From the NCBI RefSeq assembly GCF_003334305.1, contig NZ_QOWS01000004.1: a DNA stretch of 64,000 nucleotides; one strand, given 5' to 3'. The notes below the pieces were generated by a model. That model searched no databases, was not told the DNA's origin, and was given only the letters and a program-made list of their open reading frames with translations. A program made the translations under genes and the position numbers. Shown piece by piece: positions 1,335-33,735 of the stretch. How positions within the stretch are numbered: position 1 is the stretch's first letter; each line of letters begins with the position of its first letter. This stretch comes from Escherichia coli. Lineage in GTDB: Bacteria; Pseudomonadota; Gammaproteobacteria; Enterobacterales; Enterobacteriaceae.

Positions 1335-1350
1335 TGGCGTAAATCTTGCC
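1335..1350 (+). promoter_or_regulatory. Candidate sigma54 (-24/-12) promoter upstream of xdhA
   Basis: TGGCGT-aaatc-TTGCC: GG at 1336-1337 and GC at 1348-1349 with canonical spacing, about 95 bp upstream of the xdhA start. Confidence 0.5.
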
Positions 1351-1444
1351 TGCTTAGACTAAATCTTTGCCATAAGAACCAAATGTTCAAATCGAGGGGA
1401 TTTCTATGGAAGCGCGGGAAGCAACCGCTACGGGTGAATCATGC

Positions 1445-3703
1445 ATGCGCGTCGATGCCATTGCTAAGGTCACCGGGCGGGCACGATATACTGACGATTA
1501 TGTTATGGCGGGCATGTGTTATGCGAAATATGTACGTAGCCCTATCGCACATGGTTATGCCGTAAGTATTAATGATGAACAAGCCAGAAGTTTGCCGGGC
1601 GTACTGGCGATTTTTACCTGGGAAGATGTGCCTGATATTCCATTTGCTACTGCTGGGCATGCCTGGACACTTGACGAAAACAAGCGCGATACCGCCGATC
1701 GCGCACTGCTAACTCGCCATGTTCGTCATCATGGTGACGCCGTTGCCATCGTCGTGGCCCGCGATGAACTCACGGCAGAAAAAGCGGCGCAATTGGTCAG
1801 CATTGAGTGGCAAGAATTACCCGTTATCACCACGCCAGAAGCGGCGCTGGCAGAAGACGCTGCACCAATCCATAACGGTGGCAATTTACTGAAACAAAGC
1901 ACGATGTCGACGGGTAATGTCCAACAAACAATCGATGCCGCCGACTACCAGGTACAGGGGCACTATCAGACCCCCGTTATTCAACATTGTCACATGGAAA
2001 GCGTAACATCGCTGGCGTGGATGGAGGATGACTCGCGAATTACCATCGTTTCCAGCACCCAGATCCCGCACATTGTTCGCCGCGTGGTTGGTCAGGCGCT
2101 GGATATTCCCTGGTCATGCGTACGAGTCATCAAACCGTTTGTCGGTGGCGGTTTTGGTAATAAACAGGATGTACTGGAAGAGCCAATGGCGGCATTCCTG
2201 ACCAGCAAGCTTGGCGGCATTCCGGTGAAAGTTTCCCTTAGCCGTGAAGAGTGTTTCCTCGCAACCCGTACCCGCCACGCTTTTACCATTGACGGGCAAA
2301 TGGGCGTGAACCGCGACGGAACATTGAAAGGTTATAGTCTGGATGTTCTGTCTAACACCGGCGCTTATGCATCTCACGGGCACTCCATCGCTTCTGCGGG
2401 GGGGAATAAAGTCGCTTACCTTTATCCTCGTTGTGCCTACGCTTACAGTTCAAAGACCTGCTATACCAACCTCCCCTCGGCTGGTGCGATGCGTGGTTAT
2501 GGCGCGCCACAAGTCGTATTTGCCGTTGAGTCTATGCTTGATGACGCCGCGACAGCGTTAGGTATTGATCCTGTTGAAATTCGTTTACGCAACGCCGCCC
2601 GCGAAGGAGATGCTAATCCGCTCACGGGCAAACGTATTTACAGCGCAGGGTTGCCGGAGTGTCTTGAAAAAGGCCGGAAAATCTTTGAATGGGAAAAACG
2701 CCGTGCAGAATGCCAGAACCAGCAAGGCAATTTGCGCCGCGGCGTTGGCGTCGCCTGTTTTAGCTACACCTCTAACACCTGGCCTGTCGGCGTAGAAATA
2801 GCAGGCGCGCGCCTTCTGATGAATCAGGATGGAACCATCAACGTGCAAAGCGGCGCGACGGAAATCGGTCAGGGTGCCGACACCGTCTTCTCGCAAATGG
2901 TGGCAGAAACCGTGGGGGTTCCGGTCAGCGACGTTCGCGTTATTTCAACTCAAGATACCGACGTTACGCCGTTCGATCCCGGCGCATTTGCCTCACGCCA
3001 GAGCTATGTTGCCGCGCCTGCGCTGCGCAGTGCGGCACTATTATTAAAAGAGAAAATCATCGCTCACGCCGCAGTCATGCTACATCAGTCAGCGATGAAT
3101 CTGACCCTGATAAAAGGCCATATCGTGCTGGTTGAACGACCGGAAGAGCCGTTAATGTCGTTAAAAGATTTGGCGATGGACGCTTTCTACCACCCTGAAC
3201 GCGGCGGGCAGCTCTCTGCTGAAAGCTCCATCAAAACCACCACTAACCCACCGGCGTTTGGCTGTACCTTTGTTGATCTGACGGTCGATATTGCGCTGTG
3301 CAAAGTCATCATCAACCGCATCCTCAACGTTCATGATTCAGGGCATATTCTTAATCCACTGCTGGCAGAAGGTCAGGTACACGGCGGAATGGGAATGGGC
3401 ATTGGCTGGGCGCTATTTGAAGAGATGATCATCGATGCTAAAAGCGGCGTGGTCCGTAACCCCAATCTGCTGGATTACAAAATGCCGACCATGCCGGATC
3501 TGCCACAACTGGAAAGCGCGTTCGTCGAAATCAATGAGCCGCAATCCGCATACGGACATAAGTCACTGGGTGAGCCACCAATAATTCCTGTTGCCGCTGC
3601 TATTCGTAACGCGGTGAAGATGGCTACCGGTGTTGCAATCAATACACTGCCGCTGACGCCAAAACGGTTATATGAAGAGTTCCATCTGGCAGGATTGATT
3701 TGA
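1445..3703 (+). CDS. xdhA: Xanthine dehydrogenase, molybdopterin-binding subunit
   Basis: 752-aa form starting MRVDAIAKVTGRARYTDDY; KPFVGGGFGNKQD motif typical of the xanthine oxidase family. An in-frame ATG at 1406 has a stronger Shine-Dalgarno (SD). Confidence 0.93.
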   Translation: MRVDAIAKVTGRARYTDDYVMAGMCYAKYVRSPIAHGYAVSINDEQARSLPGVLAIFTWEDVPDIPFATAGHAWTLDENKRDTADRALLTRHVRHHGDAVAIVVARDELTAEKAAQLVSIEWQELPVITTPEAALAEDAAPIHNGGNLLKQSTMSTGNVQQTIDAADYQVQGHYQTPVIQHCHMESVTSLAWMEDDSRITIVSSTQIPHIVRRVVGQALDIPWSCVRVIKPFVGGGFGNKQDVLEEPMAAFLTSKLGGIPVKVSLSREECFLATRTRHAFTIDGQMGVNRDGTLKGYSLDVLSNTGAYASHGHSIASAGGNKVAYLYPRCAYAYSSKTCYTNLPSAGAMRGYGAPQVVFAVESMLDDAATALGIDPVEIRLRNAAREGDANPLTGKRIYSAGLPECLEKGRKIFEWEKRRAECQNQQGNLRRGVGVACFSYTSNTWPVGVEIAGARLLMNQDGTINVQSGATEIGQGADTVFSQMVAETVGVPVSDVRVISTQDTDVTPFDPGAFASRQSYVAAPALRSAALLLKEKIIAHAAVMLHQSAMNLTLIKGHIVLVERPEEPLMSLKDLAMDAFYHPERGGQLSAESSIKTTTNPPAFGCTFVDLTVDIALCKVIINRILNVHDSGHILNPLLAEGQVHGGMGMGIGWALFEEMIIDAKSGVVRNPNLLDYKMPTMPDLPQLESAFVEINEPQSAYGHKSLGEPPIIPVAAAIRNAVKMATGVAINTLPLTPKRLYEEFHLAGLI

Positions 3704-3713
3704 GGATAACATC

Positions 3714-31851: not shown

Positions 31852-32202
31852 TTGCATCCCTTTCATTTAATGAGTTATGTCTTCTCAAATTTCGCGATGC
31901 AATAAACGGGCATATATTAGGTAGCATGACCGTTTTAATTATAATTTTGCGACTGAGTTCAAATTATTGCCCCTCAATCTATGCCGCTTTCATTATTTCA
32001 ACATTGCCGACCAAAAGAGCGCTATCCAGATAAAAACGATTAAATGCGAGAGTGCGACATGCCAGAATGATTAATGAAATATCAATATGAGAAAATTACA
32101 GATAATTTCATTGTCAGGTTCTCTTCTCATTTTCGTGGTTTAACCACGATTATGTGATTGCCTCCGCAATTCCTGTCTCTAACTCCCCTTCCTCGCAAAA
32201 AC

Positions 32203-32217
32203 TGGCACTCCACGAGC
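32203..32217 (+). promoter_or_regulatory. Candidate sigma54 promoter upstream of uacT
   Basis: TGGCAC-tccac-GAGC: GG at 32204-32205, GC at 32216-32217, about 70 bp upstream of the uacT ATG; -12 element is non-consensus. Confidence 0.35.
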
Positions 32218-32286
32218 ATGTGTTTAGACAGTTTCATTAACGTAAACGGTTGCTTTTTACTCTGGCGGGCGAAAGGAGAAACACTG

Positions 32287-33735
32287 ATGAGCGCCATAGA
32301 TTCCCAACTTCCCTCATCTTCTGGGCAAGACCGCCCAACTGATGAGGTTGACCGCATATTATCACCAGGAAAGCTGATCATACTCGGTCTGCAACACGTC
32401 CTTGTCATGTACGCAGGTGCAGTCGCTGTTCCTCTTATGATTGGTGACCGACTGGGCCTCTCAAAAGAAGCTATTGCGATGCTCATTAGCTCGGATCTCT
32501 TTTGCTGCGGGATCGTCACATTATTGCAATGTATCGGTATCGGCCGCTTTATGGGGATCCGCCTGCCGGTGATTATGTCGGTGACCTTTGCTGCTGTAAC
32601 ACCAATGATAGCCATTGGGATGAACCCGGATATCGGCCTGCTGGGGATATTTGGTGCCACTATCGCCGCGGGTTTTATCACCACATTATTAGCGCCACTT
32701 ATTGGTCGCTTGATGCCTTTATTCCCGCCACTGGTTACCGGTGTGGTTATTACTTCTATTGGGCTTAGCATCATTCAGGTGGGTATTGACTGGGCCGCCG
32801 GAGGTAAAGGGAATCCGCAATATGGTAATCCCGTTTATTTAGGTATCTCCTTTGCTGTCTTAATTTTTATCTTGCTCATTACTCGCTATGCGAAAGGATT
32901 TATGTCCAACGTCGCCGTATTACTGGGGATTGTATTTGGCTTTTTACTTTCGTGGATGATGAATGAAGTCAATTTATCCGGGCTACATGATGCTTCATGG
33001 TTTGCGATTGTCACGCCGATGTCATTTGGTATGCCGATTTTCGATCCCGTATCCATTCTGACCATGACTGCCGTGTTAATCATCGTGTTTATCGAGTCGA
33101 TGGGGATGTTCCTGGCACTGGGTGAAATAGTCGGTCGTAAACTCTCTTCACACGATATTATTCGCGGGCTGCGTGTCGATGGCGTAGGGACAATGATAGG
33201 CGGAACGTTTAACAGCTTCCCCCACACGTCATTTTCACAAAACGTTGGCCTGGTTAGCGTGACGCGCGTTCATAGCCGCTGGGTGTGTATTTCTTCGGGA
33301 ATTATATTAATCCTGTTTGGCATGGTGCCAAAAATGGCGGTGCTGGTCGCCTCCATTCCGCAATTTGTGCTGGGCGGTGCTGGGCTGGTGATGTTCGGCA
33401 TGGTACTGGCGACAGGGATTCGAATTCTGTCGCGCTGTAACTACACCACCAACCGTTACAACCTCTATATTGTGGCGATCAGTCTCGGCGTTGGCATGAC
33501 TCCGACGCTCTCTCACGATTTCTTTTCTAAGTTACCGGCCGTACTGCAACCGTTGCTGCATAGCGGCATTATGCTCGCAACCCTTAGCGCCGTTGTGCTG
33601 AATGTCTTCTTTAATGGCTACCAGCATCATGCTGACCTGGTGAAGGAATCCGTCTCTGATAAAGATTTAAAAGTCAGGACAGTACGTATGTGGCTTCTGA
33701 TGCGCAAGCTGAAGAAAAATGAGCATGGAGAATAA
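32287..33735 (+). CDS. uacT: Uric acid / nucleobase permease (NCS2 family)
   Basis: 482 aa from ATG 32287 (MSAIDSQLPSS); SD AAAGGAGA 8 nt upstream; track ORF starts at 32158. Confidence 0.88.
   Translation: MSAIDSQLPSSSGQDRPTDEVDRILSPGKLIILGLQHVLVMYAGAVAVPLMIGDRLGLSKEAIAMLISSDLFCCGIVTLLQCIGIGRFMGIRLPVIMSVTFAAVTPMIAIGMNPDIGLLGIFGATIAAGFITTLLAPLIGRLMPLFPPLVTGVVITSIGLSIIQVGIDWAAGGKGNPQYGNPVYLGISFAVLIFILLITRYAKGFMSNVAVLLGIVFGFLLSWMMNEVNLSGLHDASWFAIVTPMSFGMPIFDPVSILTMTAVLIIVFIESMGMFLALGEIVGRKLSSHDIIRGLRVDGVGTMIGGTFNSFPHTSFSQNVGLVSVTRVHSRWVCISSGIILILFGMVPKMAVLVASIPQFVLGGAGLVMFGMVLATGIRILSRCNYTTNRYNLYIVAISLGVGMTPTLSHDFFSKLPAVLQPLLHSGIMLATLSAVVLNVFFNGYQHHADLVKESVSDKDLKVRTVRMWLLMRKLKKNEHGE

Follow-up and report, generated by a model that had tools for sequence, protein, structure and literature searches.

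Gene content and conservation of the xdhA-uacT block

The DNA analysed here, a 64,000-nt stretch of Escherichia coli contig NZ_QOWS01000004.1 (assembly GCF_003334305.1; hereafter the window), contains at positions 1199-33735 the xdhA-uacT region, K-12 genes b2866-b2888, considered here as a cluster for purine and urate catabolism and for its likely control by the σ54 activator YgeV. All 23 genes are intact, with no disruption found within the block in either the open reading frame (ORF) list or the RefSeq annotation of strain A7 (NZ_CP028767.1), which is 100% identical over 1335-21335 and 21336-33735. Gene identities were tested against NCBIfam equivalog and subfamily models with curated cut-offs, and with Pfam for the remainder. 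XdhA, XdhB, XdhC, YgeW, YgeX/DpaL, YgeY, HyuA, carbamate kinase, YqeB, YqeC, MocA, YgfK, SsnA, YgfM, XdhD, XanQ, GuaD, YgfT, and UacT all matched above cut-off; no NCBIfam equivalog match was obtained for YgfS, GhxQ, or YgeV, GhxQ having no NCBIfam hit of any kind. The genes are, in order:

1406-3703, plus strand: xdhA, xanthine dehydrogenase molybdenum (Mo) subunit (NF007426)
3714-4592, plus: xdhB, xanthine dehydrogenase FAD subunit (NF007427)
4589-5068, plus: xdhC, xanthine dehydrogenase iron-sulfur (Fe-S) subunit (NF007387)
5108-6886, minus: ygeV (= isrR), σ54 enhancer-binding protein (Pfam, motifs, alignments, AlphaFold model)
7365-8552, plus: ygeW, knotted carbamoyltransferase (TIGR03316, 825 bits against a cut-off of 453)
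8610-9806, plus: ygeX/dpaL, diaminopropionate ammonia-lyase (TIGR03528, above cut-off)
9864-11075, plus: ygeY, M20 ureido-hydrolase (TIGR03526, above cut-off)
11128-12513, plus: hyuA, hydantoinase (TIGR02033, above cut-off)
12561-13493, plus: yqeA/arcC, carbamate kinase (TIGR00746, above cut-off)
13534-15159, minus: yqeB, selenium-dependent molybdenum-cofactor maturation (TIGR03309)
15207-15977, minus: yqeC, selenium-dependent molybdenum-cofactor maturation (TIGR03172)
16080-16658, plus: mocA, molybdenum cofactor cytidylyltransferase (TIGR03310)
16980-20078, plus: ygfK, NADPH:2,8-dioxopurine oxidoreductase (TIGR03315, 1781 bits against 835)
20081-21409, plus: ssnA, ring-opening amidohydrolase (TIGR03314, 740 bits)
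21460-22239, plus: ygfM, FAD subunit (TIGR03312, 490 bits against 241.5)
22236-25106, plus: xdhD, Mo/Fe-S subunit, urate to 2,8-dioxopurine (TIGR03313, 2119 bits against 1102)
25271-26671, plus: xanQ, xanthine permease (NCBIfam)
26689-28005, plus: guaD, guanine deaminase (NCBIfam)
28041-29408, plus: ghxQ, guanine/hypoxanthine permease (Pfam Xan_ur_permease, E = 1.8e-80)
29444-29932, minus: ygfS, 4Fe-4S dicluster protein, HydN-like (below equivalog cut-offs)
29932-31851, minus: ygfT, Fe-S/GltD-like flavoprotein (NF009451, 1500 bits against 1154)
32287-33735, plus: uacT, urate:H+ symporter (TIGR03173, 510 bits)

Preceded by actS, the 5' part of the block runs xdhABC (+), ygeV (-), ygeW-ygeX-ygeY-hyuA-yqeA (+), yqeB-yqeC (-), and mocA (+), and the 3' part ygfK-ssnA-ygfM-xdhD (+), xanQ-guaD-ghxQ (+), ygfS-ygfT (-), and uacT (+), followed by yqfG, yqfH, idi, and lysS. 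The gap between ygfK and ssnA is just 2 nt. Annotations differ at the start of xdhA: the NCBI Prokaryotic Genome Annotation Pipeline (PGAP) gives a product of 765 aa from 1406, and the K-12 record one of 752 aa (1445). The upstream start (1406) lies 56 nt from the σ54 motif described below. A previous sequence-only reading of this DNA had named these genes and placed them here, which the ORF list, the strain A7 annotation, and the NCBIfam and Pfam matches all bear out.

The segment 1335-21335 is present in 5342 of 5426 complete E. coli genomes and 21336-33735 in 5375, with the block halves found at ≥80% coverage in more than 5150. The encoded proteins are 97.4-100% identical to those of K-12 MG1655 b2866-b2888. 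Taken together with the biochemical and regulatory evidence below, the block is almost certainly a core-genome purine/urate catabolic island of E. coli, the predicted step of regulation by σ54 and YgeV being included in that judgement.

The urate pathway

The pathway for which the block holds the genes has been worked out elsewhere. E. coli mutant genetics were published in 2022-23, the mutants losing labelled acetate from urate, and full reconstitution with E. coli enzymes was reported in two 2025 studies (PMC12507026; bioRxiv 10.1101/2025.04.24.650524). The gene set of the 2,8-dioxopurine pathway is complete here (XdhD-YgfM; YgfK-SsnA; HyuA, YgeW, carbamate kinase, YgeY, and YgeX; YqeB, YqeC, and MocA), and Glu606 of XdhD, the residue singled out in PMC12507026, is present.

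In the proposed scheme, XanQ, GhxQ, and UacT would import xanthine, guanine/hypoxanthine, and urate, GuaD would deaminate guanine, and XdhABC would oxidise hypoxanthine and xanthine to urate; xanthine is not consumed by a delta-xdhA mutant (PMC12507026). Under anaerobic conditions XdhD-YgfM, a molybdenum hydroxylase operating in reverse, would strip the C6 oxygen from urate to give 2,8-dioxopurine, and XdhD has been found to co-purify with a ~30-kDa protein, putatively YgfM, and to carry out this conversion when driven by NADH (Li et al., 2025, PMC12507026). YgfK and SsnA would then dearomatise 2,8-dioxopurine, with opening of the six-membered ring; with NAD(P)H the pair yields ureidomethyl-hydantoin (Li et al., 2025, PMC12507026). 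In the lower pathway, HyuA would open the hydantoin ring to give 2,3-diureidopropionate, YgeW would phosphorolyse one ureido group to carbamoyl phosphate, from which carbamate kinase YqeA would make ATP, YgeY would hydrolyse the remaining ureido group, and YgeX would convert 2,3-diaminopropionate to pyruvate and ammonia. The HyuA product was identified as such, and 2,3-diureidopropionate was taken to pyruvate by YgeW with phosphate, followed by YgeY and YgeX (PMC12507026); YgeW with YqeA made ATP from diureidopropionate (bioRxiv 10.1101/2025.04.24.650524). YqeB, YqeC, and MocA would mature the selenium/molybdenum cofactor, the selenium link of yqeB and yqeC having been predicted in 2008 (PMC2276186). 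YgfT and YgfS would be involved in electron supply from formate: according to later papers that cite Iwadate and Kato (2019), ygfT, aegA, and ygeV are required for formate-dependent urate use. For these proteins, the steps from purine import to electron supply are experimentally demonstrated in the literature and there is no contradicting evidence on the pathway assignment; the DNA site of YgeV is inferred.

The sequence-only reading had predicted that purines or urate are broken down anaerobically by way of ring-opened ureido (carbamoyl) intermediates, ending in carbamoyl phosphate and ATP; this is what the two 2025 studies reconstituted, with some refinements. Urate is indeed degraded, but entry is by C6 reduction to 2,8-dioxopurine by XdhD-YgfM and not by opening of the xanthine ring; carbamoyl phosphate does lead to ATP, but only one of the two ureido groups feeds it; and the carbon end product, pyruvate formed via 2,3-diaminopropionate, had been omitted. 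The description of ygfK-ssnA-ygfM-xdhD as a second molybdenum-hydroxylase set suits XdhD-YgfM but not YgfK, an Fe-S flavoprotein reductase, or SsnA, an amidohydrolase. The statement that most products had no firmly assigned physiological substrate is outdated, and the experiments then suggested have largely been performed in published work. The cluster and pathway are already known in detail; the earlier inference was right, but not new.

By means of this cluster gut bacteria can clear host urate, of concern in gout and hyperuricaemia, with an anaerobic yield of ATP; this too is already published, including engineered probiotic strains. How much urate is consumed varies among E. coli strains whose enzymes are near-identical, presumably via regulation (bioRxiv 10.1101/2025.04.24.650524), and native control has been bypassed with an inserted constitutive promoter (PMC12507026). 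The remaining value of the locus is in its regulation: with the σ54 promoters, a CRP-like site, and likely YgeV enhancers all placed on the sequence, there is a handle on native control and its re-engineering.

σ54 promoters and predicted YgeV sites

Sites for σ54 have been mapped by chromatin immunoprecipitation sequencing (ChIP-seq) upstream of xdhA, ygeW, ygfK, and ygfT (Bonocora et al., 2015, PMC4591121), and the four published 17-mers are all matched exactly in the window. All four lie 125-210 bp downstream of a palindrome of the TTATCA-N3-TGATAA type, interpreted here as a predicted upstream activating sequence; scores and ranks are from the matrix search described below.

1199-1219: predicted upstream activating sequence of xdhABC, AATTTATCACATTGATTTTAT (16.7 bits, rank 4)
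1225-1236, minus strand: second, degenerate copy in the xdhA region, TATCAATATGAG
1334-1350, plus: xdhABC σ54 promoter, CTGGCGTAAATCTTGCC, exact ChIP-seq motif
Starting at 6946 and 7071: weaker palindrome copies in the region between ygeV and ygeW
7038-7058: predicted upstream activating sequence between the divergent ygeV and ygeW, TCTATATCAATATGAGAATTA (19.3 bits, rank 2)
7197-7212: CRP-like site, TGTGATCAACCCCACA (TGTGA-N6-CCACA), between the upstream activating sequence and the ygeW promoter, read from sequence and partly conserved in Enterobacter
7255-7271, plus: ygeW σ54 promoter, CTGGCACACTTATTGTT, exact ChIP-seq motif, conserved in Enterobacter sp. Bisph1
16706-16726: predicted upstream activating sequence of ygfK, a perfect palindrome, TCTTTATCATAATGATAAGGA (20.2 bits, rank 1)
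16891-16907, plus: ygfK σ54 promoter, GTGGTGCGATTGTTGCT, exact ChIP-seq motif
31898-31914, minus: σ54 site upstream of ygfT, TATGCCCGTTTATTGCA, a weak motif, exact ChIP-seq match
32076-32096: predicted upstream activating sequence between the divergent ygfT and uacT, GAAATATCAATATGAGAAAAT (18.7 bits, rank 3)

A strict scan for the -24/-12 consensus (≥9 of 12 positions plus GG/GC) recovers the ygfK promoter only. The other three ChIP sites, those of xdhA, ygeW (GT at -12), and ygfT (no GG), deviate from it, so that consensus scanning alone would wrongly suggest few σ54 promoters. An RpoN site in the region between ygeV and ygeW has also been obtained by genomic SELEX (gSELEX; PMC8743547). An RNA-seq iModulon attributed to YgeV comprises xdhABC, ygeWXY, hyuA, ygfK-ssnA-ygfM-xdhD, ygfT, and uacT, and ygfT expression is lowered in a ygeV mutant (PMC10602906); in the 2022-23 genetic work, urate was found to induce ygfK and ygfT. 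The co-regulation by σ54 and YgeV put forward in the sequence-only reading is borne out by the ChIP-seq sites and the iModulon. The block start given there, 1335, coincides with the xdhA σ54 promoter, but leaves the predicted xdhA enhancer (1199-1219) just upstream.

The palindromes stand out in the window by several measures. With the relaxed pattern TATCA-N3-TGA there are 12 strand-hits within the 64 kb, compared to 1.9 +/- 1.2 in shuffles, and seven of its ten distinct sites are inside the four σ54 intergenic regions. When a weight matrix trained on non-E. coli sites only was applied to the window, its top four hits were in exactly these four regions. The 12-mer TATCAATATGAG is identical in three of them, and the core of the ygfK palindrome is identical in K-12. 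Aligned with its counterpart from Enterobacter sp. Bisph1, the ygeV-ygeW spacer shows conservation in blocks, namely the palindrome region, which in Enterobacter is a perfect TTATCAAAATGATAA, the CRP-like site, and the σ54 promoter. The fifth matrix hit (15.4 bits) is a perfect TATCATCTTGATA palindrome at 8886-8898, within the ygeX coding region, and could be an internal enhancer or a chance occurrence. An FNR-like sequence, TTGATACGTATCAC, is found at 1231-1244, ~95 bp upstream of the xdhA σ54 promoter and overlapping the degenerate copy at 1225-1236; it fits nine of ten positions of the FNR consensus, TTGAT-N4-ATCAA.

YgeV itself has the Pfam domains Sigma54_activat (PF00158, E = 8e-70), AAA_lid_14, and HTH_8 (E = 3e-13), a GAFTGA motif at residue 347, and Walker motifs (GESGTGKE, DEIGD), in the order GAF-like (with Cys84/87/93), PAS, AAA+, HTH_8. 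One paper (PMC9426417) describes it as an orphan response regulator, under the new name IsrR. Assignment as a two-component response regulator was rejected here: Pfam gives no Response_reg hit, and the N-terminus is GAF-like plus PAS instead. An AlphaFold (AF2) model from 10 sequences, with a predicted local distance difference test score (pLDDT) of 75.5, has DhaR(N) GAF-PAS as its best fold match. The GAF-PAS relatives found in this search have low template modelling scores (TM-scores) owing to domain orientation, and a search of the N-terminal sequence against the PDB gave weak PAS hits only. The motif C84-x2-C87-x5-C93 (6608-6637, minus strand) is invariant in ten homologues from several phyla; that it is a metal or Fe-S sensing site is speculation.

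A scan of genome contigs for YgeV listed mostly unrelated enhancer-binding proteins, matched via the conserved AAA+ domain, with E. coli itself absent from the matches listed, and is unfit for estimating taxonomic distribution. Among these matches, full-length homologues are 69% identical in Enterobacter sp. Bisph1 and 36-39% identical in other genomes, and those linked to clusters are from Enterobacter sp. Bisph1, a Clostridium metagenome-assembled genome, Eubacterium multiforme, Sedimentibacter hydroxybenzoicus, and Propionigenium maris, with homologues of ygeW/X/Y, ssnA, ygfK, hyuA, xdhABC, or uacT as neighbours. The recognition helix LGIGIATLYRKI is common to the cluster-linked homologues and different in the others. 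Perfect TATCA-N3-TGATA palindromes number between one and four in each cluster-linked locus, and the majority lie 100-250 bp upstream of a TGGCAY-N5-TTGCT promoter; the total for seven loci is 17, compared to 0.46 expected. There are two in 1.08 Mb of control sequence, made up of 73 loci whose anchors are unrelated enhancer-binding proteins from the same scan. In a Citrobacter werkmanii stretch (7207-11740), a YgeV homologue with 38% identity and the helix-turn-helix (HTH) sequence LGISIATLYRKI is located beside only ygeX-like and M20 hydrolase-like genes, with one half-palindrome in the spacer; it is possibly a pared-down module for diaminopropionate or ureido-amino acids, with a regulator of this type.

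Nie et al. (2019, PMC6615313) had already predicted the palindrome motif for DioR, an enhancer-binding protein of clostridia, giving the function of its regulon as "Unknown". The C. botulinum DioR site, ATTTATCATAATGATAAGG (PMC6615313 supplement), and the palindrome upstream of E. coli ygfK share one core. That YgeV is the DioR orthologue and acts at the four E. coli sites is, as a prediction from sequence, well supported. The four σ54 promoters (xdhA, ygeW, ygfK, ygfT) would drive the catabolic operons, each activated by YgeV from its upstream palindrome, and CRP would add glucose repression at ygeW; a native Crp site and glucose repression of the pathway have been reported (PMC12507026). A fuller reading, considered fairly probable as a whole, is that YgeV as the DioR orthologue directly co-activates the four σ54 operons through the palindromes, possibly along with uacT via a shared divergent enhancer; that regulator and palindrome are conserved as a pair in Pseudomonadota, Bacillota, and Fusobacteriota; and that the Cys motif could add a metal or Fe-S (anaerobiosis or redox) dependence beside a purine ligand. 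What is new here is limited to the coordinates of the probable enhancers and the connection with DioR across phyla. Neither the extension of this site to E. coli, nor the four site coordinates, nor the Cys motif was found in searchable literature.

Strong hairpins with T-runs follow xdhC/ygeV, ygeW, ygeY, yqeA, xdhD, and ghxQ/ygfS, including:

8559-8580: terminator-like hairpin, ygeW-yqeA row
11093-11112: terminator-like hairpin, ygeW-yqeA row
13500-13525: terminator-like hairpin, ygeW-yqeA row
25116-25131: hairpin terminator after xdhD

Scans of the window found no σ54 site or predicted enhancer upstream of xanQ-guaD-ghxQ or yqeBC/mocA, and a scan for sigma70 promoters gave hits at background level. 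Because of the strong hairpins between gene groups, the arrangement suggests that xanQ-guaD-ghxQ and yqeBC/mocA are separate transcription units. The two plus-strand hairpins after ygeW and ygeY (8559-8580 and 11093-11112) suggest attenuation, or sub-operons ygeW, ygeXY, and hyuA-yqeA. A -24/-12-like element, TGGCACTCCACGAGCA, occurs at 32203-32218 (plus strand), 69 nt upstream of uacT and ~117 bp from the palindrome between ygfT and uacT. The published σ54 ChIP sites do not include it, even though uacT belongs to the YgeV iModulon; the element may be a divergent uacT promoter sharing the ygfT enhancer.

Older annotation would make ygfK-ygfM-xdhD a selenate reductase, with its selenium-linked neighbours serving selenium metabolism and not purine breakdown. 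TIGR03315 is still "putative selenate reductase subunit YgfK" in NCBIfam, where "selenium metabolism-linked" labels the families of YgeY and SsnA, and the selenium-linked families co-occur with selD (PMC2276186). The selD link is however explained by the selenium-dependent molybdenum cofactor in the hydroxylases, and YgfK, which needs NADPH, neither requires selenate nor is stimulated by it and is selective for 2,8-dioxopurine (bioRxiv 10.1101/2025.04.24.650524); the selenate reductase reading is already largely refuted and highly improbable. It is likewise scarcely credible that the block is a set of adjacent but separate modules, for purine salvage by xanthine dehydrogenase, hydantoinase/carbamoylase action on D-amino acids or hydantoins, and diaminopropionate detoxification. 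HyuA and YgeX were indeed first characterised, before the pathway was known, as D-phenylhydantoinase and diaminopropionate ammonia-lyase, and xanQ-guaD-ghxQ and yqeBC-mocA are without σ54 sites or upstream activating sequences in the scans, but the enzymes have been reconstituted sequentially in vitro, mutants accumulate the matching intermediates, σ54 promoters, upstream palindrome, and iModulon are common to the operons, and the clustering is conserved across phyla.

A third alternative concerns regulation alone: the palindromes might be bound by a factor other than YgeV (Fur-, FNR-, or nucleoid-protein-like), or be mere AT-rich spacer. The sites are AT-rich, they have GATAA/TTATC hexamers in common with Fur-type boxes, and at xdhA the degenerate copy is overlapped by the FNR-like sequence. 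However, their half-site orientation is the inverse of that in the Fur 7-1-7 box; they co-occur with YgeV/DioR homologues and σ54 promoters in four phyla of very different GC content, are nearly absent from the 73 control loci, and lie 100-250 bp upstream of -24/-12 promoters, a position typical of enhancer-binding proteins; and the HTH helix is conserved among the cluster-linked YgeV homologues only. Given how the half-sites are oriented and that the palindromes accompany YgeV homologues across phyla, Fur and FNR were not adopted as binders; a binder other than YgeV, or none, is considered unlikely.

The preferred reading, a urate pathway under YgeV control, has several points against it. The E. 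coli palindrome copies are mostly degenerate in one half (TGAGAA for TGATAA), some other binder of AT-rich sites could use these sequences, and neither a YgeV-DNA binding experiment nor an E. coli YgeV binding site was found in the literature searched. For the YgeV iModulon, ethanol in baeR/cpxR knockouts is the one activating condition on record (PMC10602906), and ygeV has also been reported as indole-induced (PMC9426417). On the enzymatic side, the biochemistry is from K-12 and Nissle enzymes and is carried over to the present strain by near-identity. Among transcarbamylases, as among M20 hydrolases, some members act on alpha-ureido groups and others on distal ones, and the two reconstitution papers disagree over which group is taken by YgeW. 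According to Li et al. (PMC12507026) the 2-ureido group is removed, leaving albizziin, and according to Liu et al. (bioRxiv 10.1101/2025.04.24.650524) the 3-ureido group, leaving 3-amino-2-ureidopropanoate, with YgeY taking the other group in each case. A need for selD, selenium, and molybdenum was found for the C. sporogenes hydroxylases, and selenium dependence is demonstrated there and not in E. coli (bioRxiv 10.1101/2025.04.24.650524).

Flanking features and related systems

Other features of the window are:

87-157, minus strand: tRNA-Gly
~36103-37201, minus: prfB with programmed +1 frameshift
56781-56964, plus: 6S RNA (ssrS)
57613-57763, plus: SIB antitoxin RNA
58005-58155, plus: SIB antitoxin RNA

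The first three are ordinary core-genome features. In strain A7 the tRNA-Gly bordering the purine cluster stands downstream of a decayed ETT2-type type III secretion island, many of whose genes are frameshifted or contain internal stops; the island occupies 1-13416 of the strain A7 stretch, just upstream of the window. The two SIB antitoxin RNAs are in tandem between fau and serA, each opposite an annotated Ibs toxin gene; K-12 presumably has one ibsC/sibC only at this position.

The K-12 cluster b2866-b2888 has identical genes, order, orientation, and σ54 motifs, and the differences are at strain level only. Intergenic substitutions are few, and one of them changes a base flanking the ygfK palindrome. 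Between yqeA and yqeB, K-12 MG1655 also has a ~180-bp insert resembling repetitive extragenic palindromic (REP) sequences and a duplicated hairpin. The window has a single terminator hairpin here (13494-13533), and in the MG1655 counterpart (15395-15614 of the compared stretch) the duplicated copies flank the insertion.

Alternative routes of purine-ring degradation, the "xanthinase" route of Clostridium cylindrosporum (xanthine to formiminoglycine) and the aerobic uricase/allantoin route (5-hydroxyisourate to allantoin), have other intermediates, none of which were found in E. coli mutants (PMC12507026; bioRxiv 10.1101/2025.04.24.650524). Reductive pyrimidine degradation (PydA/PydB/PydC) is similar in its flavin/Fe-S reductive dearomatisation, ring opening by a cyclic amidohydrolase, and ureido hydrolysis, but the E. 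coli route takes a purine after Mo-dependent dehydroxylation, with two rings and two ureido groups. The arginine deiminase pathway, with ornithine carbamoyltransferase and carbamate kinase, likewise proceeds from ureido phosphorolysis through carbamoyl phosphate to substrate-level ATP. Its substrate at this step is citrulline, compared to 2,3-diureidopropionate here, and YgeW belongs to a distinct "knotted" transcarbamylase family (TIGR03316).

The uricolytic clusters of C. sporogenes and C. difficile also encode SsnA, HyuA, YgeY, YgeX, YqeB/YqeC, and a Mo hydroxylase making 2,8-dioxopurine, along with an enhancer-binding protein whose homology to YgeV extends from end to end, and the clostridial DioR regulon has the same TTATCA-N3-TGATAA upstream site and TGGCAY-N5-TTGCT promoters. 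In contrast to XdhD-YgfM, the clostridial hydroxylase is without an FAD subunit, nor does it use NAD(P)H. C. difficile has UacX in place of YgfK, and has no ATP step because the hydrolase UacY stands in for YgeW and YqeA.

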